From positions 5,714-69,713 of the forward strand of contig JALVQA010000013.1 of NCBI GenBank assembly GCA_027031495.1: a stretch of DNA of 64,000 nucleotides, written 5' to 3'. This document shows, piece after piece, positions 3,107-64,000 of this stretch. This DNA comes from Candidatus Moraniibacteriota bacterium (lineage in GTDB: Bacteria; Patescibacteriota; Minisyncoccia; Moranbacterales; GCA-2747515). Below the pieces are notes generated by a model. That model was not told the DNA's origin. It saw only the letters and a list, made by a program, of their open reading frames with translations, and did not search any database. Position 1 is the first letter of the stretch. The number at the start of each line of letters is the position of its first letter. Made by a program: the position numbers and the translations under genes.

Positions 3107-3640
3107 TTATGATGATTTGCGGCGAAACATACGTTGCTTTTTTGCAGCTGCTGTATCCGCCTTCTTATTACTTACTACATGTGTATCCTGAAAAGTACTG
3201 GATTTTGCGGTAGAACCATCCTCCTGCTTTTTTGTATCACTTACCTTTCCTGCATTCTCCTTTGTGCGCGTTTTTTGCTCAGGTTCTACGCGATTCTTAC
3301 CATCCTCAATCTCTGCAAGCACCATTGTAATGTGAGAAGTTCGTTTAAGAATTTTCGTTGCGCGACCATGTGCACGCGGCATCCACCTTTTGAGCGTCAT
3401 CCCTTCATTAACATACAACTCCGCAATATAGAGATTATCCGCATCAAAACCATAATTATGACGTGCATTTGCAACACCGCTTTTAAGCAGTTTTTCCATT
3501 GGCTGTGCGGAACGCTTTTCCATTACTGCCAGCTGGCGCTGTGCTTCGCGCACGGTTTTGCCTCGTACTGCATCAGCAACCAAGCGCACCTTATATGGCG
3601 AGATACGCAACCGATTCAGTTGTACTTTCAGTGTAGCCAT
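3107..3640 (-). CDS. rplV: 50S ribosomal protein L22 with a roughly 60-aa basic/polar C-terminal extension
   Basis: 177 aa; an L22 core (LNRLRISPYKVRLVADAVRGK) followed by a K/T/S-rich tail. Confidence 0.9.
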   Translation of the reverse strand: MATLKVQLNRLRISPYKVRLVADAVRGKTVREAQRQLAVMEKRSAQPMEKLLKSGVANARHNYGFDADNLYIAELYVNEGMTLKRWMPRAHGRATKILKRTSHITMVLAEIEDGKNRVEPEQKTRTKENAGKVSDTKKQEDGSTAKSSTFQDTHVVSNKKADTAAAKKQRMFRRKSS

Positions 3641-6526: not shown

Positions 6527-6842
6527 AAAAAAATAATCAATCCGTATCAAATAAAAATCAGCTCTGAAGCTGACCACATTCTCTTCCATAGTGGAAGCGA
6601 ATTTGCAGGTCGCCCAGTATCCGCAAGATCTGCGGACTTAAACGAGAATACACGTGCAAAAGAAATAAATCTTACAACAACATGGTTTATATTTTAAACC
6701 ATAATGTAAAATATTGCAAATTTTGCACACCCGCATACAGAAATCACTGTAAAACGGATCCTTTGGGAAAGAGTATCTCTCCCCCACAGGATCCGCCCCC
6801 TATCCAGAGACAGGGAGGCACTTTCTTTACAAAGAAGATTGG

Positions 6843-7166
6843 TTACATTTTAATTTCAACGTCAACACCGGCAGGAAGATCAAGATTTGTTAACTCATCA
6901 ATTGTCTTTGGTGTTGGATTCCAGATATCAATCAGTCGCTTATGAACACGCATCTCATACTGATCACGTGCCTTCTTGTGTACGAATGTTGACCTATTGA
7001 CTGTAATTTTGTGAATCTCTGTAGGTAGCGGCACCGGTCCCGAGACCTCAGCACCGCTCCGCAGAGCTGTTTCCACAATTTGCGCAGCTGATCGGTCAAT
7101 GACCTTGTGATCATATGCCTTAATACGGATACGAATACGCGTCTTTGCTTCTTCCTTCTTTGCCAT
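6843..7166 (-). CDS. rpsJ: 30S ribosomal protein S10
   Basis: 107 aa starting [34 protein letters not shown], canonical S10. Confidence 0.95.
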
Positions 7167-8501: not shown

Positions 8502-8841
8502 AGTACTTTAAACTTAAATTGATAACGAAAGAAAGCGGCAACACCTTCTTGTGACTACAGATATCACAATTGAGCACCGCACTATTTTTTCACTATCAAT
8601 CAATAAATTAATTTATTATTACAATTTTTATATGCACAGAGGTCACGCAAAAACTCGTGCACACTCCTGTATACAGATGGCATTATAGCAAACTGATTTT
8701 GTTTGTCAATACTTTACTAAATTCACCAATTTTTCATCACATCTATCCATAAAAACAATCAAGTCCTTCCCTTCAAATGTTTTGATTTTTTTTCATTCTT
8801 TGTAGGTGACTTTATTTGCTCATGCGCAATAACACTGCACA

Positions 8842-13713: not shown

Positions 13714-14520
13714 CTATTTTCCAATAATAAGAGCATTCCACATATCACGCAGATATTCCATCGGATACTTGATAGAATTATCGTCATTATCACCCGTTGA
13801 ATTTGAAGTAATTTCCAAAAACTCGTTATCAAAGAAAGCGTTACCATCTTCAGCATTTCTAAAATGAAAAACTAACTCATACTTTTGAACATCAATAGGG
13901 TTTCCATTTTTTGAGAATATTGTTTCCTTTACAACACGTCTTACGCTCTCAAATTCTATAGAGAAAACTTGTCCCAACCGGTCACTGTACACATTGACAG
14001 TATGATATTTTTGAAGTTCCCTGTACTGGTTTGGCGTAACACGTGTTATAAGGCGTGTGCCACTATTGGCAAACATGGAAAAGAGAGTATCTCCTGTATT
14101 CACGGAAGAATCTTTTACTTTTGGAACTTCATCAATAACGCCGTCTTGCGGAACGTAGATTTTGTAATTATCAAGCAAATTATTTAAAATGCTTATTTCC
14201 GTTCGTGCAGAAACATTTTCCTCTGCAAATTCTTCAAGTGTAGCAATACGCTCTCTTATTTTTGTCGCATCAATAAGCACTGCAAGTTCACCCCTCTTTA
14301 CATGCTGACCAGAAGATACAAGAATTTCCTTAATTTTCCCAGAAACCTCAGAAGAAACTGAAACATTTTTTTTATCAACATAAAAGAATATTGGGCTACC
14401 AATTGTTTGAAGTGTATTCATCTTTCGTGCAAGTGCCTGCGTTGACACAAAAAGGACAAATAAAAAGATGAGGATAAAGGCGAAAACATTGAAAAGCGCT
14501 TCTTTTAAATTTTTATTCAT
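13714..14520 (-). CDS. HlyD-family periplasmic adaptor (membrane-fusion protein)-like
   Basis: 268 aa with an N-terminal TM anchor and a biotin-lipoyl-like hairpin (VSGKIKEILVSSGQHVKRGELAVLID). Confidence 0.55.
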   Translation of the reverse strand: MNKNLKEALFNVFAFILIFLFVLFVSTQALARKMNTLQTIGSPIFFYVDKKNVSVSSEVSGKIKEILVSSGQHVKRGELAVLIDATKIRERIATLEEFAEENVSARTEISILNNLLDNYKIYVPQDGVIDEVPKVKDSSVNTGDTLFSMFANSGTRLITRVTPNQYRELQKYHTVNVYSDRLGQVFSIEFESVRRVVKETIFSKNGNPIDVQKYELVFHFRNAEDGNAFFDNEFLEITSNSTGDNDDNSIKYPMEYLRDMWNALIIGK

Positions 14521-14548
14521 AGTAATAGAATACTTATTTGTAAATCGT

Positions 14549-14956
14549 TTACTTAAACCTCCCTCTCAAGAGAAATGAACCGAGGAGAAAAATTGTAATG
14601 ACAACCCATATAGAATTAAAAAATGTTGACCAAAATTCCGGTGGGTTATACCACCCAATTACAAGACTTGTAAATGACAGCAGAATAATAAGCATATGTG
14701 GCCAAATCCACTTCATAATGGGATCAATGTTACTTCTTCTTGATGTTGTTGCGATCCACCTCTCCTCCGTATTAAAAATAACAGAAAAAAGTCCCATAAG
14801 GTAAGGATAAAAACTAGCATACGCTGTTGCCATAGTGGATAAACGCATAGCCTGTCCTAAAAGGAGCCATGTAAGAGAAAAATAAAGAAAAAAGAACGGG
14901 AGGTAATGAACAAAATACCAGAGACACTTGTTTATTATTTGACAAGTGTGCAGCAT
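14549..14956 (-). CDS. Small polytopic membrane protein (about 4 TM helices), hypothetical
   Basis: 135-aa hydrophobic ORF directly upstream (minus strand) of the HlyD-like gene. Confidence 0.4.
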   Translation of the reverse strand: MLHTCQIINKCLWYFVHYLPFFFLYFSLTWLLLGQAMRLSTMATAYASFYPYLMGLFSVIFNTEERWIATTSRRSNIDPIMKWIWPHMLIILLSFTSLVIGWYNPPEFWSTFFNSIWVVITIFLLGSFLLRGRFK

Positions 14957-15060
14957 TTTTGATAAAAAAAGTAACCTATTTGAATACTTTTTATTCTTAG
15001 TGCTTTTTAGTACGGCGCCATACCACTAGAACACCGTGGCAAATAAACATTCTCAATACA

Positions 15061-15089
15061 TTGACTTATGCACACAAAAATGCTACGAT
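15061..15089 (+). promoter_or_regulatory. Candidate sigma70-type promoter for tRNA-Lys
   Basis: TTGACT (15061-15066), a 17-nt spacer, then TACGAT (15084-15089), about 46 nt upstream of the tRNA. Confidence 0.35.
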
Positions 15090-15135
15090 GGCAATCAGTT
15101 ACAACCACTTACACGTTGTCACTTTCAAAATACAT

Positions 15136-15208
15136 GGGCGCATAGCTCAGTCGGTAGAGCAACGGCCTTTTAAGCCGATGGTCGGGGGTTCGAATCCCTC
15201 TGCGCCCA
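15136..15208 (+). tRNA. tRNA-Lys (anticodon UUU)
   Basis: 73-nt cloverleaf with acceptor GGGCGCA/UGCGCCC, D-arm GCTCAGTCGGTAGAGC, anticodon loop cuUUUaa, T-arm GGTTCGAATCC. No CCA is encoded. Confidence 0.9.
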
Positions 15209-15832
15209 CAAAGAAATAAAAACAAGCTCTTGGCTTGTTTTTTAATTATCAATGCTATAAACGCGGTAGTTTATACCTGACTTCACTATTCTTCAGAGGA
15301 ATATAACACTTTACTACTTGCTGTTATCAACCATCACCGCGTTTGAATTTGACATAGATAAATCTGATATCAGCTTACTTAATTTTACCTTACTGCTCCA
15401 TACATTCTAAAAACTTGCCGACAATGACAAGATGTTTATCACTGTCTTTAACTACGACTACATCGTCGTCGGAAGGAATAGCTCTCCTATGGGAATTAAA
15501 AACTCTATAAACCTTCAAAATTCTTGAAAAGCTTAATAAAGCGACTGAGAGAATGCTACTCCCTCAGTCAAAACGTTACTCCACGAGCAAATCCTTTTGC
15601 TCGTGGAAAAAATTTACCCTTCCAAAATCTCCTTCCATGAAGATTGGAAGGGCTTACCAATGACCTTCTTGTCATAGACCAGAGCGTGAGAGCATCAATC
15701 AACCTCCTCAAGGTCGCTCCGTCTGCCCCACGCCCATGAACAAGCACGGCGGAGGGGCTTAGCGCCGATAACTCATCCTCTAAGAGCATCCCTTGCAGAA
15801 AGGAATGCTCTAAATGAATAAGATGGCTACAA

Positions 15833-16966
15833 TCACCACCTATCGGTAGTGATTCCACCGCGAGATGCCGGGTCATTCGGGTCTGGGATATCATACTCTC
15901 TATTGAATATGACTTTCTCTCCCATTGTGGCACATACCCTTATGGTTGTGCCTGAGCCGAAATAAAGGTCCCGATAGCCACCAGCGGGTCTATACCCGTC
16001 AGCGCTCTCGTTGCGAAAGTGATTTCTAACAAATCTTATAGAATCACTTTCCCTTTCGGTTACCTCTACGGACCACTGCTCCCGGGGGATTTCAATCTCT
16101 TCAACTTTTTCCCCCACTGCTACAAAGGTATCAGTGGTTACTTTCAGGACAACATCAAACTTTTCGTCCCTGAAAGTTGTGCCGGCAGGTAACAACTTGC
16201 GCTGTTGTACCTTTTTTTCCATAAAAGCTTTTACGGGAATGTCAATGGAGACATCCTTTCCGTAAACTTTTCTTTTTACTGACTCAGTTTCAATTCTAAC
16301 CTCGTCAGCAATTAGAAATGTTTCATCCTCAGCAGGTCTCCCATAGGAAGCAACCGCCTTTGCGGCGATGTATTCTTCGAGCTGAGAATTACCCACTTTC
16401 CCATCAAAAATAACCTCGGTCGTTTTTGCTGGGGAGAACATCGCCCTTTCCTCAAGGAAAGTGACTGGACCAATATCAAGACTTATCGATCCGTCCATCT
16501 CCCCCTTTGGATCTGGTTTGACCCTAATGTCATAAATATGCGCATCAATCACATGGATGCACCTCTTGGCATCATATCTGCCGGCAGCAAGAATGATTTT
16601 TTCATCATCATTTACCTCCAGCACGATATCCTCCGGAACAAATATCTGACTATTCTCCATGTCAGGAATAATGTCCCCAGACGCCACCATTTCATCTATG
16701 CCATGGTGGCTACTATATCTTATGAGATGTTCCGGATCTATCTTTACCGTCCTTGGTTGAATGACTTCAGCAACCCGCGCTATAACAACCTTGTCAAGTT
16801 CGCGAATTACCTCTAAAACAACCTTGCAATTTGCATGGTTGTTTTTTAGCACGTCCATACCACCGGACACGATAATCCATTTATCATGCCTTCTTTTGAT
16901 AATGCAGTCCCTTGCATTTTTTTTGCTCGGGCTCAACTCCGAGATTTTAAAAATCAGTTCTTTCAT
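15833..16966 (-). CDS. Hypothetical 377-aa cytoplasmic protein of unknown function
   Basis: Long ORF with a GGAG ribosome-binding site 7 nt before the second ATG (MKELIFKIS...); an upstream ATG at 16984 is also possible. No family recognised; there is a C-terminal RFVRNH (R-x4-H) motif. Confidence 0.6.
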   Translation of the reverse strand: MKELIFKISELSPSKKNARDCIIKRRHDKWIIVSGGMDVLKNNHANCKVVLEVIRELDKVVIARVAEVIQPRTVKIDPEHLIRYSSHHGIDEMVASGDIIPDMENSQIFVPEDIVLEVNDDEKIILAAGRYDAKRCIHVIDAHIYDIRVKPDPKGEMDGSISLDIGPVTFLEERAMFSPAKTTEVIFDGKVGNSQLEEYIAAKAVASYGRPAEDETFLIADEVRIETESVKRKVYGKDVSIDIPVKAFMEKKVQQRKLLPAGTTFRDEKFDVVLKVTTDTFVAVGEKVEEIEIPREQWSVEVTERESDSIRFVRNHFRNESADGYRPAGGYRDLYFGSGTTIRVCATMGEKVIFNREYDIPDPNDPASRGGITTDRW

Positions 16967-17079
16967 CTTTACTCCCTGCGCCATGGACGGCGCGTTGAGG
17001 TTGAACCACTACCCTCCATGAGAGGGTAGACTAGACGTCTATGTGCCCGCAACTTGGAAAGTTGCCGGCACAATAAAAG

Positions 17080-17125
17080 TCCCGAGCAAGTGATGTCACC
17101 ACAACATCACCGCTCGGGAAAAAAG
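17080..17125 (-). terminator. Terminator-like hairpin downstream of the DUF1874-like ORF
   Basis: Stem tcccgagc ... gctcggga with an inner stem gtgatgt/acatcac, followed on the minus strand by CTTTTATT. Confidence 0.3.
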
Positions 17126-17233
17126 TGTTTTTTATGTCGTTACCGACTTTCGGGGAACCACCCCTGCGCACGGAACACTAACCGCACGCCCGTGGATAGC
17201 CGCCACGGACTTGGATTGCCTCGCCGGCGACGG

Positions 17234-17548
17234 TTAGGAAACCGTCACGAGGTACCACTTAATGGTGGCACCCTCCGGAAGGCTGGTTGCACCTTCCAGC
17301 AGACGAGGGCCGCGATACTGGCCCACCAGCACCGCCTCGCCTTTCTCAAGGGAGACGGTTACACGCTGGCAAGGCACAGCAACGCCGAGCTGCTCACCAA
17401 GGACGGCGGCAGTCTCGGCGTGACCGACGGCAGAGTCGAAACCCTGCGCGACGGCCTCGCGAGCCTCGTCAAGCGAGACCTCCTTGATCATGACTGACGC
17501 CGGAAAAGACGCCAGCATGTTCAAAGAAAAAGCGTTGAGCAGTTTCAT
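17234..17548 (-). CDS. Small GC-rich ORF resembling DUF1874 (viral AcrIII-1 / host Crn2 cyclic-tetraadenylate ring nuclease family) - tentative
   Basis: 104 aa (MKLLNAFSLNMLASFP ... AVGHAETAAV ... RVTVSLEKGEAVLVGQ...) with a GGAGGA ribosome-binding site 8 nt upstream. The N-terminal NAFSxNML-type motif and a mid-protein His recall the STIV B116 / SIRV1 gp29 family, but this is from memory. One 60-nt stretch counts 70% GC versus about 43% in the neighbouring gene. Confidence 0.45.
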   Translation of the reverse strand: MKLLNAFSLNMLASFPASVMIKEVSLDEAREAVAQGFDSAVGHAETAAVLGEQLGVAVPCQRVTVSLEKGEAVLVGQYRGPRLLEGATSLPEGATIKWYLVTVS

Positions 17549-17599
17549 CGCTCAACTCCTCCGGATTAACGCACCGGGGAACAGGTTCTTATTGTACTC

Positions 17600-19100
17600 G
17601 TTCATACATCACTGCATAAACGAGCGGTCACCAATGACCGACCACTTCACTCTTGGGTAACCAAGAGCTTATAGGCCTTTTTCAAACCTGTACTTTCGCG
17701 TCCGCAATTCACCAAGGCTTGCGGAGGCCCAAATTTGCCACTCTTCCGAGCGGCACGGTGTAGACAAAGCAAGGAGGAATCCTTTGTCCACACGGTGTCG
17801 CCAAGAAGAATTTGTGCGATTGGTTCTGAGAGGTCTGTACTCTCTACCTCCACGCGAGAGGGTTTCTCGTGGGAAGGATAAAGAGGGGGAGAAGTGTGCA
17901 CCACACGCTTCTCCCCGAAATAACCATGCGTGATTTTTTGTTATCCCCCCTCACGCTGGGGGCTTCCCGCTAGGCAGCTTGTTGTTTCTGCCTAGCGAGA
18001 AAAATCAGTTGGGCGGCACGGTGGTGCCGGGTGGCACCCCCGCGATTATTAAGGAAGCGCTGGGCCGTATTCGGCCCAGCTTCCTTTAAAATCTTTTCAA
18101 CCTTGCGCTCAATCCACGTTTTTTGCATATTCTCTCCCTCCCCATTAACTGAGGAGGGCCTCGTTTTGCCCCTCGCCGTGCGGGGCGTTTAATGTGTCCA
18201 ACGGGCGGCGAACTCCCGTTGGAAGAATTCTGTGCTCTCACCCGAGAGCGCTGTGGAGGCAATGCGTGTTGTCTCTACAGCGCTATGGGTGAAAGATTAA
18301 GTTGTTAAAGAGTCCCTCCACCAGGCAACGCTGCGTGCTGTCTGTGTGGGAGAGTCCCGTTTCGTGAGGGAACCGTAACTGGCGAATTTGTACGCCAGTG
18401 AACTGGGGGAAACGCAAAGGGATTGTTATATGACTTCTCTCCCCCTTTCCCCGCAGATCACTGCCACACAAAGCGTCAGTGCTTCTTTGGTAGGTGTCTT
18501 TTCTGCTTTTGGAGCGACCTTTTAGAGTGGCTCACGGCATGAGTGTGTGATACAAAAAAGCGATCGGGAGACGTCCTCTCATGTAATCGTTACCTGCACA
18601 CTGCAGATATTTCTCATCATAAGAAGAGATCTCCCGATCGCTCTGTTATTGACAACGGCCACCTAATGCGCCCGCGTCGTGCTTTCCTGTAGTAAATCAG
18701 AAAGACTCTCTCCTCGCCTGTCACACATCTCGTGTGATTTCTCTCATTACACTGCCTAAAGTGTAGTGAGAGAAGTTTTTTGCAATAAATTGTCTAAAAG
18801 AACGTGCCCTCAGTCCGTGTCCGTGTCTATCTCAGTGTGAGCTTATAATAGCACACATCCACATCTGTGTCAATACCCTTACTGGAGATTTCTGTGTGCT
18901 ATCACTACTTCTGACACGCACTCTATACTACCCTTCATTACTGTACTGGTGAGAGTATAGCACATATATATTATCATGTCAAGTACTTTAGGCATATCTT
19001 TTGTATCGCGCTTTTGATTGGGTGCGTACGTGATGAAGTTGTCAATACCTGCCGTTTTTATCATCTCTACACAAGCGCCGTGCACTGTGCTATAATCAGT
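17600..19100. other. ORF-poor, hairpin-dense, GC-enriched region: candidate large structured ncRNA or degraded mobile-element remnant (class unknown)
   Basis: About 1.5 kb with no ORF over 85 aa on any frame in otherwise gene-dense DNA, and many perfect stem-loops (17970-17995, 18053-18084, about 18135-18165, about 18200-18225). There is a 12-bp perfect long-range complement (18559-18570 with 18631-18642). Confidence 0.25.
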
Positions 19101-19157
19101 AATCACATCTTTTGCGCCTTTTGTGGTAGTATGGAATTATCATAAACAACACAAAGT

Positions 19158-20072
19158 ATGGCACTCAAAACAATCACAACGGATTTCCTTACGTGGATTG
19201 ATGTTGACCAGCCAACGGCGCACGATATTGAAACGCTACGTTCGCTCGTCACAATTCACCCGCACGCATTCAAGGAGTTTTCCATCCCAACATCACGCGC
19301 GCGCGTTACTCAGTACCCTAATGGCATTTTTCTCGCACTCCACATCCCACTCTACAACAAAGACGAGCATGCAACATACCAGGCGGAGTTTGACGCTATT
19401 ATTACGGAAACGCACATCATTACCGGTCATGTTGATGCAATCTACCAGCTTGATGCTTTTTTTGAAAAGTTTCAGCAAAACAAAGAATTGCAAACGGATG
19501 ACATTGGCAAGGGGCCCGCATACCTTTTACATGCGATTCTTACCATTTTGATTGATACGTGTTTTCCGCGCGTTGAGCATATTGCTAAAAAAATTGACGC
19601 TGTTGAGGTTGGTGTTTTTCACAACCACGAAGATCACATGGTGCGCGAAATCTCCAACGTAAAACGTGATATTATTAACTTTCGTCGCGCCATCATGCCA
19701 CAGCGCGCGATTATAGAGTCTCTTATGCGCAAAGATCACCGCTTTATTCCGCGCGAACTTCATCCTTACCTCTATGATCTCGTCGATGCAAATACACATC
19801 TGTGGCACATGCTTGAAAGTCACAAGGAGGCAATTGAGTCATTAGAAGATACGAACGACACACTCCTCTCGCACAAGATTAACGAGAAAATGCGTATTAT
19901 TACGATTTTTTCTGCAATCATTCTTATCCCAACGCTTTACGTAAGCACGCTCGGCATCAGTGCCGATATTCCACTTCATGACCATCCGCATAGTTTCTGG
20001 ATTCATGTCAGTATCATGTTCGTTATCGGTGTACTCACCATGCTTTTCTTCAAGTGGCGACGGTGGATTTAA
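19158..20072 (+). CDS. CorA-family (MIT superfamily) membrane protein, divergent: no canonical GMN motif
   Basis: 304 aa with a CorA-like cytoplasmic domain and two C-terminal TM helices; the loop reads LGISAD where YGMNF is expected. Confidence 0.6.
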   Translation: MALKTITTDFLTWIDVDQPTAHDIETLRSLVTIHPHAFKEFSIPTSRARVTQYPNGIFLALHIPLYNKDEHATYQAEFDAIITETHIITGHVDAIYQLDAFFEKFQQNKELQTDDIGKGPAYLLHAILTILIDTCFPRVEHIAKKIDAVEVGVFHNHEDHMVREISNVKRDIINFRRAIMPQRAIIESLMRKDHRFIPRELHPYLYDLVDANTHLWHMLESHKEAIESLEDTNDTLLSHKINEKMRIITIFSAIILIPTLYVSTLGISADIPLHDHPHSFWIHVSIMFVIGVLTMLFFKWRRWI

Positions 20073-38010: not shown

Positions 38011-39780
38011 TTAGAATGCACCGATATTACCACCATCTGTCGCCGCACCTTTTGCCGGAGAACCATCCTTGAGATGAAAATCCCCCGCCGCCGGATTGAC
38101 AAACTGCGGATCGCCAACAATCGTGTTAATGCCATCGTACGGCACCATATCACTGTCCCATTTATGTGCACCATTTTGCGGACCATTGATGAGGTTGTTT
38201 TCTATCTTGATATTCTTTGCAAGAAGATCCGCCTCACCGCCACCATATTGATCCTTTGCATAGGCAATCTGAAAGTCTGCACTGTCACTGATAATATTGT
38301 CATGGATTGCAACATTCTTAATATTAGCACTATAGATGTTAAGACCGCCACCAATCCATCCGCCATCTATGCCATGCCCACTGTGCACGATTGTGTTCTT
38401 GTAAATCTTAACATTTTCACGTGGACCATTTGCGCCAAAGCGTGAGATATAGATGCCATTGCCAGCATTGTTATACAGGAGATTATGGTGGAATGATATA
38501 TTTTTTGCAAGATCGGGGTTTTCAGAACTCAGCGCAAATCCCATAAAGCCGCATCCTCGCCCGATGTTGCTGTAAATTTCAATATCATGCAGTCCACCAA
38601 ATCCAGCGTCCACATAGTAACATTGTCGCGCAATATTTTCTACGAGGTTGTGATGCACTTTACCATTGCCACTATTCTCTTTTACGTCAATACCTTCTTT
38701 GTGAGAGTCGTGGATATGATTGTATGCAATTTCAAAATTTTGCACACCCATTGTGCTAATTGCTTCATGCGGCGCTTCTCCACCACCATAACCCGCCATT
38801 GCCATACTGTTGTCCGTCGCGCCGATAATCGTATTGTGTAAGATGCGCACATCATGCGGGTTCTGACAGCCGTTATTGGCAATGCTCAGTGTGTTAATGC
38901 CGGATGAAAAGGTATGTTTGGTTGTATTGCCGATAATATCCACGTGGTGTGCACTGCACACAGAAATGCCACTGCTTTGTGCATTGTGCACCTGCAAATT
39001 CTCAATACGAATATAGCTCACCCCATTGCTGATAAGAATCGCACCATAGTCACGATCATCAAGCGCAACGCTTCTGCCAGAAAAGTCCAGAATTACCGTT
39101 TCCCCTGGATAGCCGGCAAACGTAATCCACGCGTCCGGTGTGCCAGAGTTTTTCGGCTCCACGCGCTCTGTCAACTGGTATGTCCCATCGCGCACATAGA
39201 CGGTCTGCCCCGCTGTTAGTGTTTCTGCTGCATGCTGTAGCGTTGCCCACGGCTTGTCTTTTGTGCCGGGATTGCTATCAGAGCCATTTGGCGCGACATA
39301 AAATGCTCCCGCCACTTCCGGCTGTGGCGTATAGTTCTCCGCACCGTAGATACTCTCATCCATTACAGGCGGCTCTACATTGTCCGTGTCTGCCATAGTA
39401 GATGATGCTGTGCGTTGTGTTGTACCCGTATCAACAACAATCCTGTTTGCGCCGCCAATTGCAACAAGAGAACTACTACTGCCCCCGGTAGAGCTCCTTG
39501 TTGAAATACGAACATTGTTACTGCCGGTCCCTCCTCCGTTCGTTGTTGACGTATCCGTACCCACACTCGTCGTTGTACTTAATGGCGCTGTCGGTGCAAC
39601 TGGCACACCCATTGACTGCACCGTTCTTTGTAACGCCTGGACACGTGCCTGGAGTTGATCGTGCGTTTGCAAATCTGATTGCTGTGGCTGTGTAATAACA
39701 CCCTTCCCCACAAAATACGTCGTGATTAACGCTATGAGCGTAAGAACGATTTTTAATAATTGCTGTAGGATTGCTTGCAT
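38011..39780 (-). CDS. Membrane-anchored right-handed parallel beta-helix (pectin-lyase-fold) repeat protein
   Basis: 589 aa with an N-terminal TM helix, a T/S/G-rich linker, then many NxxI/H-rich beta-helix-like repeats (HNTIIG, HHNLVEN, HHNLLYNN, HDNIISD). Confidence 0.65.
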   Translation of the reverse strand: MQAILQQLLKIVLTLIALITTYFVGKGVITQPQQSDLQTHDQLQARVQALQRTVQSMGVPVAPTAPLSTTTSVGTDTSTTNGGGTGSNNVRISTRSSTGGSSSSLVAIGGANRIVVDTGTTQRTASSTMADTDNVEPPVMDESIYGAENYTPQPEVAGAFYVAPNGSDSNPGTKDKPWATLQHAAETLTAGQTVYVRDGTYQLTERVEPKNSGTPDAWITFAGYPGETVILDFSGRSVALDDRDYGAILISNGVSYIRIENLQVHNAQSSGISVCSAHHVDIIGNTTKHTFSSGINTLSIANNGCQNPHDVRILHNTIIGATDNSMAMAGYGGGEAPHEAISTMGVQNFEIAYNHIHDSHKEGIDVKENSGNGKVHHNLVENIARQCYYVDAGFGGLHDIEIYSNIGRGCGFMGFALSSENPDLAKNISFHHNLLYNNAGNGIYISRFGANGPRENVKIYKNTIVHSGHGIDGGWIGGGLNIYSANIKNVAIHDNIISDSADFQIAYAKDQYGGGEADLLAKNIKIENNLINGPQNGAHKWDSDMVPYDGINTIVGDPQFVNPAAGDFHLKDGSPAKGAATDGGNIGAF

Positions 39781-56411: not shown

Positions 56412-59400
56412 CTATACACTCTCTGATCCCGGCGCTACGACGCCGTCAACCAATTTTGGTGCTTGTTGATCGTCACCATCATTTCCATCACGATCCACAT
56501 CACCGTCATCCTTGCTCTCATCAAGACCTTTCTCTTCCTTTTTTTCTGGTGATTTTACCTTTTGACCGGCCTTGTCCTTATTTGACTTATTCTCCTTTCT
56601 TTCATTATCACCGTCTTTTTCTTCTTCTTTCTTTTCTTTTTTCCGAGCCTCTTTCTTATCGCTCTTCTCAGCACCCTTGTCTACCTCCTTCTCGCCATCT
56701 TTCTCTTTCATACTTTCTTGCATTTCTCGTTCATCGTCTTGTGCTTTCTTGTTATCAGCGTCAGTGCCATTCCCGCCATCTTTATCTTTTTTCTCACTGT
56801 TAGCGCTATCACCATATTTACCACCCTCCTTGTCCGCGTCTTCGTCGTCACTCTTCTCATCACCCTTTGTAGCGCCTGTTGCCACACCGCCTTCATCGTG
56901 TGCACCTGCGACGTCAGTACCCTCTTTTTTGTCACCACTTTCTTTATCGCCACCGTTTTTATCATCACTCTTGTCTGTCACATCACCTTTTGTTTCGGTA
57001 TCAGCTACGCCGGCGCTATCTGTCGCATCATGCGTATCACCTGCAACACCGTCATGCTTTTCTTGACCATCTTTTTTCTTATCGTCACTACCAGAAGCAG
57101 ACGCATCTTGCGCACCATCTTCATGCATGTCGCCACCAGCTGCTTCTTTTTCTCCCACTTCATGATCTGCTTGACGCGTCTTCAAGACACGCTGTGTATC
57201 ACCTTCTTCTTGACGCTCATCAAACAAGTCATACTTCTTCATGAAATCTTTGCTACACAGCGGTGCACCACTCTCGTCAAAGCAATGCTCTTTATAGTAC
57301 GCTCGCATCTCATCTTTGTCGTTGCTGATATTATTCTTTTTGCCCGGTGTTGGAATCGGATCTACCCATGCACCATCATGATCCCAGTCGCGTGCAATAG
57401 ACTTTCCTTCCTCTACAGCATCAGCATCGTACTCGTATTCATCAACCAGATTACCCTCATTATCAAAGAGTTTTACAGCATCACCGTTGTTGTTAAGGTA
57501 GAAGCTTCTGTAGTTTTGTATAACAAGACGCTCACCCGGTTCAATAGTTGTTGAACCAGTGTTTGTGTGTTTAACATCAATCACTCTCTGCTGACCATTA
57601 CTATCAGCAATATACCATCCGTCAACGTCAACATTATCATTGCTAATATTGCGAAGCTCTACCCACTCCTTGCCTACTGCCGGCTGTGGCATAAATTCGT
57701 TAAGTACAACCTGTGTATTCTCAATCTCTGTTGGAAAACCGGCATCTACAAGGTCTCGCGTTTCATACTGGCGCGCGTTGCTGACAACATCGCCGAGCCA
57801 CACATCCACAACCGTCCACGTTCCCGGGTAAGACCCCTTTCTTAAGGTAATGCTACCGGTACACTCAACTTCACCACTTGTGCCGGTTGGCGTGCAGTCT
57901 GCTCCATTGATATGCAGAAAACCATCCTCCTCGCCATTTGCTGCTTCTATTTCAACATTCATGCCATCAAGACCAGACATGTCGTCACGTACACGTGCTG
58001 TGAAGGTAATTTCTTTTGCGCCGTCAACCGTATTAACTACTTTTGGCGTAAAGTCAAATGCTTCAAGCACCGGCGCCTCAGTATCAGACACCATCGCTTT
58101 ATTAGTAATTTTCAGATAATCACTATACACCGCCACATTCCCGGCATAATCAGGGAGATAGAACATTAACATCCACTCACCTGATCGCGCACCTCGTGGG
58201 AATGTCACCGTTATGCTGTACGTACCATCCTGATCTGTCCCGCTTGTACGATCATCATCTGTAATTGGATAACGAAGACCGGTGCCACCTCCCACAGGAT
58301 AGAACATAAGATACGGTCGGTATGTGGCATAGCCATCACCGGCAGCAAGGCCTGTTATATTGTCCGTCACACGAAATTGTACAGTTACATCTTGCACATG
58401 ATCTTCTGTATTAATCACCATCGGTGTGACTGTTGTTGCGTCCTCAAGTACCGGGTGCTGTGTATCTGCAGGCGATTCTGCATGATTAGTAACAATTAGA
58501 TCACCAAAGTCGCCCAGGTCACCTACCTCATATCTCCTTGTATTACCCATGTTGTCGGTAAGCGCAATATACGTAAACGTCCATTCGCCTTGTGCTGCCC
58601 ATTGTGGTATATCAACGGTGATTTCATACTTACCATCCTGTTGTGTACCGGAAGTACGATGTTCATCTCTGATAAATTTCTCAACCGCGTTTATTCTGCC
58701 ATCTTGATATGTGCCCGCATTACCAATAATAAACTTTGTTCCAGAGTACGTGCTTGTATCAAGACCTGTTCCTCTATCTGTTATATGCATTCTTACAGTA
58801 ACTGTCTGTGGCCCATAATCAGTATTCACATCATGTGGTGCGATAGAAATACTCTCAAGAATCGGCGCTTCGGTATCCACTGAAGCGGACACGCCATTGT
58901 AAATTGTCACCGGAAGCTCCTGTCGCAAGAGATCATCCGTCAGCCACTGCGCATAATTGCCATTATCATCCACCAAGAAGAAACGACGCAATACCCACTC
59001 ACCTTGCTCAGCATCGCGTGGGAAAGTAACACTCGCCTTATACACACCGTCGCCCTCGGCAGTCGCATCTTGCAAGAGCGCAGTCACAGACTTGTTACCG
59101 GACGGTGATACAAAGAGAATGTATGACGGTACAGAACTTGTGCGAGACGGCCCGCCAATATGACTATCACTTGCGGTCTTAAAGTATACATCAACTGTCT
59201 GCTCACTGTCTGTCGTATCTATTTCGTTTGGATCAAAGCGCAAGATTGCCAAGGCCGGTGCAATGCGCCTGTATGTTATACCTTTTACAATCGGGCTGTG
59301 CTCGCTATTGCCAACGTTATCCGTCGCACTTGCTTTGATGCAGTACGTACCATCTGTCGACGGCGTCCACGAATAACTCCACGTAAAAGATGTGTTGTTA

Positions 59401-61010
59401 TTAGGATCGTCGGCATCTGGATTGGAAATTGTTCCGATGTGCGTGTAACCAACGCCAGAAGGATCGCATGTATCCGTATTCTCATCGTAAGGCGCATACG
59501 ATAGGTCAACATGATCAACACCACTGAGCGCATCCACTGACTGCCCCTGAATAGTAATGCTCGTATTTTGATAGAATACTCCTTCAACCGGTGTGCTAAT
59601 AGTGGATGTTGGCTCCGTAGCATCGTATGTTACTTGACAGCTACCGTCTAGCGACTCGTCACTCACTGCCCATGCTGACTTATTGCCGGCTGTATCCACG
59701 GCGCGCACCGCAAAGCCGTACGTGCCCTCATGTGGCAACCACACACCATTGTACTGGAATATTGAATCAGTGAACACTCTCTTTTCTATGCCAATAGAAC
59801 CGTCCGGCGCATTAAACGACGTGTACTCATAGTGGTCAAAGTCGGGTTCTGTATTATCATCCCAATCAGGCCACATCTTTTGAATCTTTGAGTATACAGG
59901 ACGATCGTCAGTACCACATTCATATACTTTATTACCCTCATGCGGTGCGATGCGACGCAATCCTGTTGGACGTGCCGGCGGACCATCATACGTAATAGAG
60001 CATTCATTACTCCACTCAGAAACGGGCTCATCGGCGTCTACAACGTTGTCATTATCCTCATCAAACCATGCACGTACACGTGAGCCGTATGTCCCATCAT
60101 GTCCAGGGTTACCACCAAATGTTCTGTAATTTGTGTATGGGTGTGTGTAAATCTCGCTACCACGCCAACCATATGCACCTTCCTTCTTATACTGTCGCTG
60201 GTACTTGATCTTCGCATTGCCATGCGCAACATCCGTCCAGTGGATTGATATAGCATTAATATGTGTTACACCACCCATACATGCGAATTCATTCGGATCA
60301 CGTGGCGTTGCAGGATCATCACTACTGCTGTTTTTCTCGTTATATCCTGTCTGAACAGGTGTTGGGATGCCTGTATGAATAGTGTTATCATCAATAGTTT
60401 CTCCATCAACCCATCCACTTGTAGGATTGTCAAATTCTGTCTGCCATGCTGTAAAAGCAAATCTAAAAGAGCACTCTTCGTTTAGAGGTGTATCGTCCGG
60501 TGCGGTGATTGTAAAAATCCACTCATCGTGCGCATCCACCGCCAACATATGCGTCTCACTATCTAAATCAGAAAGGCCTCCATCATACACAACACTACCA
60601 TTCCGCTGCACTTCAACTTTCAGCGCTTCACACAATGCATCATCACCGTCAACTTTCTCAAAGACAACATTGTAATGAAAATCAACGCCACCGACATTCT
60701 CCACTTTTGCCGTTCGCGTAACACTGTCACCCGGCACCATATTCTCGGCAACTGTCGACAATTGCAATCCTGCATCCTGGCTCGTTGCTTTCATATCAAG
60801 ACTGCTGGCACCTATGCTCCCGGTAGCTGTTTCATGATCAATGTATGCTGCGTGCACATCTGTACTCAGCGCACTTACACACACAAAAACAGCAGCGCCA
60901 CTCAGCAGTGTCTTTAACGCCACTTTTAGAAGTTTCTCACAATGTTTTTGACTACAGTATCCTTTCTTCATACTCTTTTTCACATGTCTTATATTATATG
61001 GCACCATCAT
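56412..61010 (-). CDS. Giant (1532 aa) secreted multidomain surface protein: TasA/camelysin-like N-terminal domain, multiple Ig/FN3-like beta domains, a lamin-tail-like domain, and an approximately 340-aa acidic/Lys-rich disordered C-terminus
   Basis: A single uninterrupted ORF with a signal peptide and the MVPGDSVTRTAKVENVGG motif. It has repeated beta-rich modules, an LTD-like segment (VVLNEFMPQPAVGKEWVELRN) and a D/E/K/G-rich tail. Confidence 0.7.
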   Translation of the reverse strand: MMVPYNIRHVKKSMKKGYCSQKHCEKLLKVALKTLLSGAAVFVCVSALSTDVHAAYIDHETATGSIGASSLDMKATSQDAGLQLSTVAENMVPGDSVTRTAKVENVGGVDFHYNVVFEKVDGDDALCEALKVEVQRNGSVVYDGGLSDLDSETHMLAVDAHDEWIFTITAPDDTPLNEECSFRFAFTAWQTEFDNPTSGWVDGETIDDNTIHTGIPTPVQTGYNEKNSSSDDPATPRDPNEFACMGGVTHINAISIHWTDVAHGNAKIKYQRQYKKEGAYGWRGSEIYTHPYTNYRTFGGNPGHDGTYGSRVRAWFDEDNDNVVDADEPVSEWSNECSITYDGPPARPTGLRRIAPHEGNKVYECGTDDRPVYSKIQKMWPDWDDNTEPDFDHYEYTSFNAPDGSIGIEKRVFTDSIFQYNGVWLPHEGTYGFAVRAVDTAGNKSAWAVSDESLDGSCQVTYDATEPTSTISTPVEGVFYQNTSITIQGQSVDALSGVDHVDLSYAPYDENTDTCDPSGVGYTHIGTISNPDADDPNNNTSFTWSYSWTPSTDGTYCIKASATDNVGNSEHSPIVKGITYRRIAPALAILRFDPNEIDTTDSEQTVDVYFKTASDSHIGGPSRTSSVPSYILFVSPSGNKSVTALLQDATAEGDGVYKASVTFPRDAEQGEWVLRRFFLVDDNGNYAQWLTDDLLRQELPVTIYNGVSASVDTEAPILESISIAPHDVNTDYGPQTVTVRMHITDRGTGLDTSTYSGTKFIIGNAGTYQDGRINAVEKFIRDEHRTSGTQQDGKYEITVDIPQWAAQGEWTFTYIALTDNMGNTRRYEVGDLGDFGDLIVTNHAESPADTQHPVLEDATTVTPMVINTEDHVQDVTVQFRVTDNITGLAAGDGYATYRPYLMFYPVGGGTGLRYPITDDDRTSGTDQDGTYSITVTFPRGARSGEWMLMFYLPDYAGNVAVYSDYLKITNKAMVSDTEAPVLEAFDFTPKVVNTVDGAKEITFTARVRDDMSGLDGMNVEIEAANGEEDGFLHINGADCTPTGTSGEVECTGSITLRKGSYPGTWTVVDVWLGDVVSNARQYETRDLVDAGFPTEIENTQVVLNEFMPQPAVGKEWVELRNISNDNVDVDGWYIADSNGQQRVIDVKHTNTGSTTIEPGERLVIQNYRSFYLNNNGDAVKLFDNEGNLVDEYEYDADAVEEGKSIARDWDHDGAWVDPIPTPGKKNNISNDKDEMRAYYKEHCFDESGAPLCSKDFMKKYDLFDERQEEGDTQRVLKTRQADHEVGEKEAAGGDMHEDGAQDASASGSDDKKKDGQEKHDGVAGDTHDATDSAGVADTETKGDVTDKSDDKNGGDKESGDKKEGTDVAGAHDEGGVATGATKGDEKSDDEDADKEGGKYGDSANSEKKDKDGGNGTDADNKKAQDDEREMQESMKEKDGEKEVDKGAEKSDKKEARKKEKKEEEKDGDNERKENKSNKDKAGQKVKSPEKKEEKGLDESKDDGDVDRDGNDGDDQQAPKLVDGVVAPGSESV

Positions 61011-62735: not shown

Positions 62736-63086
62736 ATGAGTACACTCCACGATGTTTTGGACGCGGCTGTTACGCAGTTGCACACCGACGCCGGCGAGGC
62801 AACTGTAGATACAGCGCTCCTTGAAGCTGTCGCAAAGGGTCTTGGTCCTGCAATCTATAATGATGATGCATCCACTGTGTCATGCTCTGACAAAGATGAG
62901 CTCGCACGTGTGCGTGAAAGTTTTGTTAAAGAAAAACTCGGCGTTGGCGCTCCTGATGAAGAGATTGACGCCGCGATTGCGTCAGTGTGCGAGAAACTCG
63001 GCACAAGCAACCGCAACAAACTGCGCGTTGTTTTCTATTATCTCCTCACACGTTACTTTGGCAAAGAAGATATCTACAAGGCATAG
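62736..63086 (+). CDS. DUF2853-like small protein
   Basis: 116 aa from an internal ATG (MSTLHDVLDAAV ... LLEAVAKGLGPAIYNDDASTVSCSD ... NRNKLRVVFYYLL), resembling the DUF2853 family from memory. Confidence 0.5.
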   Translation: MSTLHDVLDAAVTQLHTDAGEATVDTALLEAVAKGLGPAIYNDDASTVSCSDKDELARVRESFVKEKLGVGAPDEEIDAAIASVCEKLGTSNRNKLRVVFYYLLTRYFGKEDIYKA

Positions 63087-63110
63087 TCTTTGTATGAAAC
63101 GTAAAAAAGA

Positions 63111-63145
63111 AAGCCCTGGTGGTTATTACCGCCAGGGCTTTTTAG
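63111..63145. terminator. Bidirectional intrinsic terminator
   Basis: agccctggtgg ttatt accgccagggct stem, followed by TTTTT and preceded by an A-run, between convergent genes. Confidence 0.55.
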
Positions 63146-63161
63146 TGTGCAGGCCTTCGTC

Positions 63162-64000
63162 CTATTTTGCCCGCACAAAGTTAATGATTGCCGCATGCAC
63201 GTCATCATCCATGATGAGGGCGCGGTGATCAACGCCTGCACTGTTTCGGTACGTCACAAAGCGTGACGCAACAGGAAACGACGCAGAATCCGCTATAACC
63301 ACGCCGTCGCCGTTTGCATACCACACACGCTGCGGCGCGTTTGCAAGGACAACGGAGCGCGGATCACCGTTTGGCCAGCGCGTACGTGCTTTACACGGCA
63401 CGATACCGAGATCACGCACAAGAATTTCTTGTGGCGTCTTTGTGCCCGTGCCTGTAATGTTCAGCACCGTCGCACCATTTGCAAAGAGCGCACCGGCATT
63501 TGCATTAAGATCTTCCAGCCACGTATTGTGACGGCAGAGATCTTCGTATGCGACCGGCTCGGCAATCTTTTTTAGCGGATGCCAGCGACGGATGTAGTCA
63601 AACGTCGGTGTCAGTTTACCAACCGACGGTACATACTCCTGCACGTACTGATAGTCAAACAGCGCAGGACCATTCGTACTGACACCATCAAGAAACGCGC
63701 TGACGTCTTGGTTGATTTGCGCCCACTTCATGACGCCAAGAAGCGTCTCTTTGAGCGCACGTTCACCGCGCGTACCCATGACATCACCACCGTAGAGGTA
63801 GTACGCCTCTACAGCACCACGGTGTGGCGTGCCAACGAAGATGGCTTTTGCCACTTGCGCGCAGAGGCCCTTTTGCATGCATGCACGCACGACGAGACCG
63901 CCGTAGCTGTGCGCAACGATCGCAATAGTGCCACTGTCCGTTTGCTCCGCAAGGGCTCTGACCTGTGCATCAAGATACGGTACCAGCGCATCCGGCGTGT
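63162..64000 (-). CDS. Alpha/beta-hydrolase-fold lipase/esterase (GxSxG AHSYGG); N-terminus lies beyond the window
   Basis: The reading frame stays open upstream of the listed GTG start (... IAIVAHSYGGLVVRACMQ ...) to the window edge, with the nucleophile elbow AHSYGG as in Bacillus LipA-type lipases. Confidence 0.7.
   Translation of the reverse strand, partial: TPDALVPYLDAQVRALAEQTDSGTIAIVAHSYGGLVVRACMQKGLCAQVAKAIFVGTPHRGAVEAYYLYGGDVMGTRGERALKETLLGVMKWAQINQDVSAFLDGVSTNGPALFDYQYVQEYVPSVGKLTPTFDYIRRWHPLKKIAEPVAYEDLCRHNTWLEDLNANAGALFANGATVLNITGTGTKTPQEILVRDLGIVPCKARTRWPNGDPRSVVLANAPQRVWYANGDGVVIADSASFPVASRFVTYRNSAGVDHRALIMDDDVHAAIINFVRAK

Follow-up and report, generated by a model that had tools for sequence, protein, structure and literature searches.

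What is the GC-rich DNA that lies beyond the tRNA-Lys(UUU) gene of a Candidatus Moraniibacteriota bacterium? We analysed 64,000 nucleotides of contig JALVQA010000013.1 (assembly GCA_027031495.1), a stretch referred to as the window, in whose own numbering its positions are given. A first-pass annotation, made from the letters alone, had marked out about 3.9 kb of abnormal composition immediately 3′ of the tRNA gene, and had suggested an old or decayed insertion or a non-canonical element. The segment at about 16965-18600 is a recently acquired, intact accessory module, located in a region that varies between close relatives. We think it reasonably likely that this is a horizontally acquired DUF1874 ring-nuclease module, organised as one minus-strand unit with two cis-acting RNA elements.

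Composition and gene content of the GC-rich segment

The window averages 45.2% GC, and this value was used as the reference. At 54.8%, positions 16965-18600 are richer in GC than any other 1636-nt window of the 64 kb (mean 45.1%, standard deviation 2.6%), and the best window outside them reaches 50.4%. The GC profile that the first-pass annotation had recommended therefore does show a deviation, and its hand-counted values were nearly right (41.7% where it gave 43%, and 70.0% and 58.3% in two other 60-nt stretches). The anomaly is real, but it covers only about 1.65 kb. The DNA at 15210-16984, including an open reading frame (ORF) of 377 or 383 codons, is host-like at 40-44.5% GC, and DNA of foreign composition begins 1.75 kb from the tRNA gene, with this host-like DNA between. 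There are 23 strong hairpins in 16-18 kb, compared with about six per 2 kb window-wide, and predicted folding energy beyond the GC expectation is concentrated at 16950-18600; a regression for excess structure that was trained on the window proved not to be transferable to other loci because of strand composition effects. An independently assembled comparison locus that stems from another run (L013; these loci are numbered with an L) matches 18329-15626 at 100% identity, so that an assembly artefact cannot account for the boundary of GC-rich and host-like DNA on that side.

The GC-rich ORF, at 17548-17234 on the minus strand, encodes a 104-aa DUF1874/AcrIII-1/Crn2/Csx16-like protein. The family had been recognised in the first-pass annotation, and the match is well above threshold (PF08960, 44.8 bits, cut-off 26; PADLOC Csx16, 1.5e-14). 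The family profile matches the structures 2j6b, 2x4i, 2j85 and 6scf at 1e-9 to 1e-12, which comprise SIRV1 gp29 (2x4i/6scf), STIV B116 and AFV3-109. The catalytic His47 of SIRV1 gp29 aligns with H43, a residue invariant in 29 aligned homologues. The nearest protein from a cultured phage, that of THSA-485A, is 47% identical and has been validated experimentally as AcrIII-1, and AcrIII-1 protein binds all-adenosine cyclic RNA (bioRxiv 10.1101/778746). With SIRV1 gp29, THSA-485A and STIV B116 the window protein shares its Pfam family, its size, the N-terminal NAFS.NM box, the catalytic GH and a conserved loop region. It is predicted, on well-founded comparative grounds, to be a small dimeric ring nuclease that cleaves cyclic tetra-adenylate, which serves type III CRISPR systems as their alarm signal.

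The window protein differs from these AcrIII-1/Crn2 proteins in its setting. Its gene is chromosomal in a bacterium of the candidate phyla radiation (CPR), and neither virus genes nor a type III CRISPR system were found among the ORFs scanned in the window (most of those of at least 180 aa between 7 and 64 kb, and smaller ones near the module). The protein falls within a tight CPR clade that is accompanied by RNA elements of its own, and in which about 21 distinct loci encode a TrmB-like regulator 0.15-3 kb upstream of DUF1874; this regulator is absent from the window. Where present it is about 250 aa long and often divergent (L005 7098-7856, L008 5165-5908, L012 2474-3220, L024 417-1151, L025 1264-2028 and about 16 more), and loci of the L005 type have an AT-rich repeated operator-like sequence over a TTGACA-N14-TGTGCTATAAT promoter.

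Searches with the 104-aa protein yielded 613 homologues, the best 120 of which are 59-98% identical to it, mostly 59-80%. Those from species-representative genomes come overwhelmingly from metagenome-assembled genomes of Patescibacteria (Paceibacterota, Saccharibacteria, Campbell-, Nomura-, Kaiser- and Vogelbacteria), and a metagenome scan with the single protein gave at least 11 loci. More distant DUF1874 homologues, no more than 60% identical, are encoded on 55 IMG/VR contigs. No DNA match to the module was found in phage and plasmid collections, and no phage genes were seen in the window. The neighbouring ORFs in DUF1874 arrays are orphans, and those of the sister loci had no PHROG or Pfam match.

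That the GC-rich segment is foreign, as had been suspected, was borne out by both codon composition and distribution. The GC content of third codon positions (GC3) is 0.69 in the DUF1874 gene, compared with 0.36-0.52 in 12 host genes (host mean 0.43). The same excess was observed in L002, L005, L015 and L023, and the genes of L008, L012, L024 and L025 are ameliorated. The gene recurs together with its RNA elements at 72-92% nucleotide identity in other CPR contigs, in unrelated contexts and with different neighbours (tig/nusA in L002, rplJ/rplL in L015). The module is GC-rich within hosts of 34-45% GC, and in the contigs with the closest genes nucleotide similarity extends beyond the DUF1874 ORF on both sides.

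Structured elements on either side of the DUF1874 gene

A structured leader of about 190 nt precedes the gene at 17540-17737 on the minus strand, matching our model R1 at 218 bits and a core model, R3, at 40.5 bits. It consists in order of P1, an internal loop, P2, a second internal loop (UAUAAG/UGAAGU) and a P3 hairpin, the core lying at 17690-17625. Across instances of the core, P1 has 8-10 bp, P2 4-5 bp and P3 6-8 bp; the P1-P2 loop is GAAUAC-like on the 5′ side and GAnAUAA on the 3′ side, and the P2-P3 loop has UAUAAG and UGAAAU respectively. In the window this leader has a long form, in which two extra hairpins are inserted in the P1-P2 junction, between P2 and the 3′ loop. In the terminal helix of the long form, UCCC pairs with the Shine-Dalgarno (SD) sequence GGAGG immediately upstream of the AUG; 5/5 long forms retain this helix.

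In an alignment of five loci (A4), which has 49 pairs, 93% of cells are paired and 24/49 pairs are compensatory, compared with 2-7 in slid controls. Model R1 scored 174-218 bits in five loci; in L023, where another ORF follows, it scored 58 bits. Core model R3 found 19 copies, all on the gene strand, one of them in the window and none in housekeeping loci. When 19 instances from 14 loci were folded individually, the minimum-energy structure of each was P1/loop/P2/loop/P3, although the stem sequences are quite different. With stems defined by anchors, P2 formed 4/4 pairs in 18/18 instances (2.0 when strands were swapped between instances) and P3 formed 5.7/6 pairs (3.5 when swapped). In alignment A9, 88.4% of cells are paired, compared with 49.4% after shuffling, and all 16/16 pairs are compensatory; covariation is 0.988, compared with 0.249 after shuffling (0/500 shuffles reached the observed value) and at most 0.27 in slid controls. 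The 180 anchor-defined pairs include 16 G-U and no A-C pairs. The complementary strand would therefore carry 16 mismatches, and the fold belongs to the sense strand alone.

A second conserved structured element, of about 150-250 nt, follows the gene on the same strand (16985-17245; model R2, 162 bits) and serves at the same time as leader of the following ORF. Its chained hairpins are CCGUGG/CCACGG, GCGUGCGG/CCGUGCGC, GGGG/CCCC and GUCG-GUAA-CGAC, continued by hairpin H (17122-17075) and two more hairpins, and the element ends at the SD sequence of the 377-aa ORF. The 249-nt spacer at 16985-17233 has a folding z of -6.4. Pairing extends to 88.5% of the cells of alignment A5, with compensatory changes at 9/33 pairs (0-2 in slid controls). 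Model R2 also matches after DUF1874 in L014, L001, L015, L002 and, more distantly, L027 (E = 1e-4). In L014, which is 92% identical, similarity takes in the SD sequence of the next ORF and its start codon but goes no further; a different sequence follows the start codon, and hairpin H recurs after the swapped segment.

In the window the ORF that follows the 3′ element has 383 codons from its first ATG (16984) or 377 from the ATG at 16966, which has a better SD sequence, and ends at 15833 on the minus strand. Its composition is host-like (GC3 0.45, host mean 0.43). It had been called an orphan, and it is a true one: in 5.8 billion clusters it matched only itself, and exhaustive HMMER searches returned itself and three weak matches to repeat proteins. 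Pfam, NCBIfam, PADLOC and PHROG gave no match, and an AlphaFold2 model made without an alignment was uninformative (predicted local distance difference test score 34). This ORF is the variable gene that follows the module downstream.

The 5′ leader is very probably the DUF1874 motif of Weinberg et al. (2017, Nucleic Acids Res 45:10811, PMC5737381), in a new long form, as matched by its verbal description. That motif was described as a multistem fold with highly conserved internal-loop nucleotides, located in the 5′ untranslated region (UTR) of genes including DUF1874; its occurrence in consecutive intergenic regions was called frequent but not obligatory (PMC5737381). The window copy has the covarying fold with conserved loops and the 5′ UTR position. 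As with the published motif, there is no integrase nearby, and copies occur consecutively in sister loci, before unrelated orphan ORFs in L018, L023, L024 and L107. Unlike it, the window copy has extra hairpins and an SD-pairing helix, and it stands alone. At the gathering threshold, neither the window nor 26 DUF1874 loci matched such a family in Rfam 15, and scans by E-value gave none either in the window region (E<=5) or in L024 3300-4010 (E<=10). No later paper mentioning the motif was found in the literature searched. It has been an orphan since 2017, and the sole published idea is that of an exotic DNA recombination site, from a tentative comparison with attC sites in which no integrase was seen (PMC5737381).

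On that proposal the structured elements would be attC-like DNA recombination sites, in an integron-like cassette array without an integrase. The consecutive copies before unrelated orphans would fit such an array, as would intergenic repeats within L003, L015 and L023, and so would the exchange of the ORF after the 3′ element between the window and L014, with hairpin H repeated after the swapped segment. The strand and position of the motif do not. attC sites recombine through their bottom strand and follow the ORF, whereas the 16 G-U and 0 A-C pairs belong to a sense-strand fold, and the motif keeps its place relative to the following start codon: in short forms 8-21 nt separate its end from the AUG, and the distance to the preceding stop ranges from 178 to 610 nt. 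The hairpins are not flanked by R′/R″ boxes (GTTRRRY/RYYYAAC), and the window has a single copy. No tyrosine recombinase was found among the window ORFs scanned, and a Xer-like one lies 3.5 kb away in one locus only. The window accordingly has none of the marks of an integron or of a cluster of attC sites lacking an integrase, namely attC 3′ of ORFs, R″/R′ boxes, a bottom-strand fold and IntI, and we consider recombination sites an unlikely explanation. An element acting at the RNA level is favoured by the sense-only G-U pairs, by the position tied to the AUG, and by the hammerhead ribozymes found in sister loci.

These Hammerhead_3 ribozymes are intergenic and on the same strand as the ORFs of DUF1874 arrays. 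There are five in L008 (3564-3619, 6883-6920, 7327-7383, 7906-7962 and 9312-9368), one in L021 (3766-3820), two in L022 (5076-5130 and 5415-5469) and one in L025 (3483-3537); most score just below the Rfam gathering threshold (39-47 bits vs 48.5). One of those in L008 ends 38 nt before the DUF1874 AUG, L025 has both a hammerhead and the motif, and no hammerhead was found in the window. Since hammerheads or the motif occupy comparable intergenic positions, structured sense-strand RNA devices between small same-strand ORFs appear to be a general feature of DUF1874 arrays.

We propose that both conserved elements work in cis, as RNA within the sense transcript. The 5′ motif, which ends a few nucleotides before the ribosome-binding site and in the long form is followed by the helix that pairs the SD sequence, would set the translation, stability or processing of the downstream cistron. 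Because the motif or hammerheads lie between successive small ORFs of same-strand sister arrays, its most likely role would be that of an intercistronic site for mRNA processing or stabilisation and translation control. RNase III sites lie between the T7 early genes in a similar manner, as do hammerhead ribozymes between genes of bacterial and phage arrays. All are sense-strand irregular hairpins with internal loops, or ribozymes, between small same-strand ORFs; the DUF1874 motif differs in having no similarity to any Rfam ribozyme class, and cleavage would be expected by analogy only. Going further, the motif, perhaps with the 3′ element, might represent a new RNA processing or sensing class for accessory or anti-defence arrays in Patescibacteria. 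Such a class would be self-cleaving or RNase-guiding and interchangeable with hammerheads, or would be a leader responding to cyclic oligoadenylate or to the ring nuclease; the proposal is tentative and, taken as a whole, rather doubtful.

The 5′ motif might instead be a riboswitch that senses a ligand such as cyclic oligoadenylate or some other nucleotide signal, or a site of autorepression by the DUF1874 protein. Conserved A-rich loops (UAUAAG, GAAAU, GAnAUAA) between covarying stems would suit such a function, as would a position in the 5′ UTR with an SD-pairing helix in the long form, and the cognate protein binds all-adenosine cyclic RNA (bioRxiv 10.1101/778746). However, short forms have no obvious expression platform, the SD sequence lying just outside P1, and the motif also precedes unrelated orphan ORFs. 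We regard both versions as quite improbable.

Intergenic repeats other than the motif were also seen within single DUF1874 loci, at 78-99% identity. They lie at 1860-1998, 3142-3335 and 4006-4104 in L003, at 3-58/1665-1720 and 981-1062/2080-2160 in L015, and at 659-905/5690-5936 and 1973-2033/3064-3124 in L023, and may be additional undescribed intercistronic elements.

The hairpin field and the predicted transcription unit

No convincing ORF was found in 17549-19157, in line with the first-pass annotation, which had described about 1.5 kb here with no credible ORF. The stretch is nevertheless not empty, as it holds the conserved structured RNA of the leader and a dense field of hairpins. This field, at 17741-18800, contains 11 strong hairpins, mutually unrelated and mostly GC-rich, with 7-15 Watson-Crick pairs each. 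A doubtful 52-aa ORF at 18128-17970 has its SD sequence inside a hairpin arm; this ORF, which has no Pfam match, and an 85-aa ORF both form singleton clusters. About 118 fetched loci and the phage and plasmid collections yielded no BLAST or nhmmer homologue of the field, its hairpins share no flanking motif, and there is no similarity at the protein level to other DUF1874 neighbours. A degraded TrmB gene was considered for the field and rejected, as tblastn matches were at chance level only. Over 15000-19300, Rfam 15 at E<=5 returned only tRNA-Lys and weak matches at chance level (E 0.02-3.5), well short of the gathering threshold, near the tRNA or in the 383-aa ORF. It returned nothing in the GC-rich DNA at 16965-18800, and hence no large non-coding RNA, intron, riboswitch or ribozyme; the families covered include GOLLD, ROOL, OLE, HEARO, group I/II introns, riboswitches and ribozymes.

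Two tandem sigma-70-like promoters are predicted in host-like AT-rich DNA on the minus strand, pointing into the hairpin field and the module. They read TTGACA-17-TGnTATACT (18982-18954) and TTGACA-17-TGnTATTAT (18873-18845), each with 11/12 hexamer positions and the TG of an extended -10 box. A -10 box of the TGTGCTAT type is also present at the divergent corA promoter (19068-19096). The divergent corA/module promoter region, 18840-19100, contains TGTGCTAT/ATAGCACA four times; the best reading is that these are extended -10 boxes (TGnTATAAT-like), with two predicted promoters facing each way. The same extended -10 box was seen in promoters of other CPR loci (L005 type).

With two strong predicted promoters pointing into it, the field might, by itself or with the motif, form a large structured non-coding RNA in its own right, DUF1874 being merely downstream. 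Its predicted structure exceeds the GC expectation, it has no credible ORF, and hairpin-dense fields recur around DUF1874 genes in at least nine other loci (L001, L002, L003, L014, L015, L018 and L023-L025), with almost none in the housekeeping DNA of relatives. Against this, the hairpins are local and near-perfect, need no long-range pairing, and have wobble pairs without strand bias (7 vs 5). There is no Rfam family match, and the lack of a sequence homologue means that no covariation test is possible. A separate RNA gene of this kind seems improbable to us.

We favour a single minus-strand unit that includes the field. Transcription would start at the two promoters (about 18950 and 18840) and pass through a hairpin-rich leader of about 1 kb, the 5′ element, the DUF1874 gene, the second structured element and the orphan 377-aa ORF, to end at terminator hairpins beside the tRNA gene. 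Two hairpins of 12 pairs each are located at 15543-15607 on the minus strand, about 230-290 nt downstream of the orphan stop codon (15833). The first has a T-rich tail, z is about -5, and wobble pairs are found only on the minus strand; in sequence these hairpins are terminator-like. A 10-bp hairpin flanked by A and T runs at 15218-15242, present in the terminator scan and the hairpin list, is a probable bidirectional terminator for the tRNA and the minus-strand operon.

Several observations weigh against a single ring-nuclease unit with RNA elements. As no type III CRISPR system, CARF effector or phage gene was found among the scanned ORFs of the 64 kb, the predicted ring nuclease has no visible partner or target there, and the association with type III CRISPR-Cas or CARF genes that would mark Crn2 is missing. 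The promoters and terminators are consensus matches only. The hairpin field, with neither a homologue nor a wobble strand bias, may be unrelated to the module or may act as DNA. The window has a single motif copy and no array, and the 5′ motif was not found beside the DUF1874 genes on the 55 IMG/VR contigs. Its conserved A-rich internal loops suggest a specific partner, whether a protein, a ligand or a tertiary contact. Finally, its identity with the published motif rests on the verbal description in that paper, no Rfam 15 family having been returned.

As far as the literature searched shows, the 3′ element, the sense-strand evidence, the co-occurrence with hammerheads and the link to TrmB are new. 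This locus and its relatives give testable grounds for regarding the DUF1874 motif as an mRNA element. If the motif does represent the new processing or sensing class considered above, an enzyme that destroys a CRISPR alarm signal would be under regulation in an episymbiotic CPR bacterium. The ring nuclease is widespread and highly conserved in CPR bacteria. As these bacteria rarely have CRISPR and live attached to other cells, the question is whose cyclic-oligoadenylate signal would be destroyed. For annotation, GC-rich patches of CPR genomes that appear free of genes can be compact gene-plus-RNA modules rather than decayed islands.

The tRNA-Lys boundary and other parts of the window

The tRNA-Lys(UUU) gene was placed at 15136-15209 on the plus strand by ARAGORN and Rfam (76 bits), as in the first-pass annotation, and forms the boundary of a conserved housekeeping block. 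Genes for EF-Tu, LDH, RseP, RRF and the tRNA lie on one side of the variable region, and those for CorA, CysS, DnaB and RecR on the other. The host EF-Tu is 86-89% identical to Candidatus Moranbacteria proteins and 93-96% identical to those of closer relatives, of which L117 (96%) is the closest and L118 has 93%. These two loci were compared through EF-Tu, using 10-kb flanks that end just beyond the tRNA. Both keep the gene order EF-Tu ... RseP-RRF-BNR-tRNA-Lys. In L117 the tRNA is identical to that of the window (74/74) and its promoter region is partly conserved (a TTGAC box and AAAAATGCTAC), with similarity breaking off where the tRNA gene ends on its 3′ side; in L118, which was not aligned base by base, the tRNA still adjoins the BNR gene. 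Beyond the tRNA, L117 and L118 carry different orphan ORFs of about 600 aa, and the tRNA-distal side is thus variable in the lineage. The alignment with relatives suggested in the first-pass annotation defined, in L117, a break at the tRNA 3′ end, but the flanks compared end before the corA side. A search for CorA-based synteny in GTDB genomes found no relative.

Such a break, together with the foreign composition of the segment and the extra orphan genes on both sides of the tRNA, would be expected of a classical genomic island at the tRNA-Lys 3′ end that has lost its integrase and att sites through decay. The locus resembles tRNA-linked islands and integron arrays in its foreign composition, orphan cargo, variable region at a tRNA and hairpin-rich intergenic DNA, and composition and presence/absence polymorphism both agree with an island. 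It differs from them in having no integrase and no att or attC consensus, and in having its structure on the wrong strand for attC. As the first-pass annotation had already noted, neither an integrase or recombinase nor a repeat of the tRNA 3′ end is to be seen: no direct repeat of that end of 12 nt or more exists anywhere in the window, and no integrase, recombinase, Cas, CARF, CRISPR, phage or conjugation genes were found among the ORFs scanned. A search for a flanking target-site duplication gave only one 11/12-nt repeat (17008/18927), estimated to be at about chance level. The foreign part is not contiguous with the tRNA, as 1.75 kb of host-like DNA intervenes. Nor is the module old or decayed, as had been supposed: its ORF is unbroken and retains the catalytic His, the flanking RNA elements reach 218 and 162 bits with their models, and there is no amelioration of composition. 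Elsewhere the same module lies beside non-tRNA genes, and the presence of tRNAs in the fetched flanks of about one-third of loci is, by a rough estimate, what chance would give in small CPR genomes. Integration at the tRNA-Lys 3′ end is thus not supported, and a decayed tRNA island is highly unlikely. The first-pass annotation had also allowed for an ancestral element such as a conserved RNA gene shared by relatives; conserved structured RNAs do exist here, but they travel with the gene and are not ancestral at the locus.

Other differences between the window and these relatives were noted near the tRNA and EF-Tu genes. Between the BNR gene and tRNA-Lys, the window has at 13714-14956 (31-38% GC) a 268-aa HlyD/biotin-lipoyl-like gene and a 135-aa orphan, both absent at that position in L117 and L118, which makes a second, AT-rich variable patch across the tRNA. 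Between EF-Tu and an HhH-GPD glycosylase, L117 (8000-9751) and L118 (8111-9835) encode a Pel9A-like beta-helix protein of about 580 aa. The window is without this gene at 8502-8841, and a similar beta-helix protein of 589 aa is encoded at 38011-39780.

Three further features lie elsewhere in the window. The 340-nt S10-L3 spacer at 6590-6931 on the minus strand has excess predicted structure (z about -3 to -5) and a 17-pair hairpin with no Rfam match, and may be an S10-operon leader or attenuator-like element. A second GC-rich stretch occupies 63000-64000, with 53.6% GC over the last kb and 58-60% in places; it includes a strong terminator-like hairpin at about 63140-63100 and a 242-aa ORF on the minus strand (63162-63890) that has no Pfam match and is cut by the window end. 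An ORF of 1532 aa at 56412-61010, with lamin-tail and DUF7035/DUF7743 domains and strong negative GC and AT skew, probably encodes a giant surface protein of a kind common in CPR genomes.

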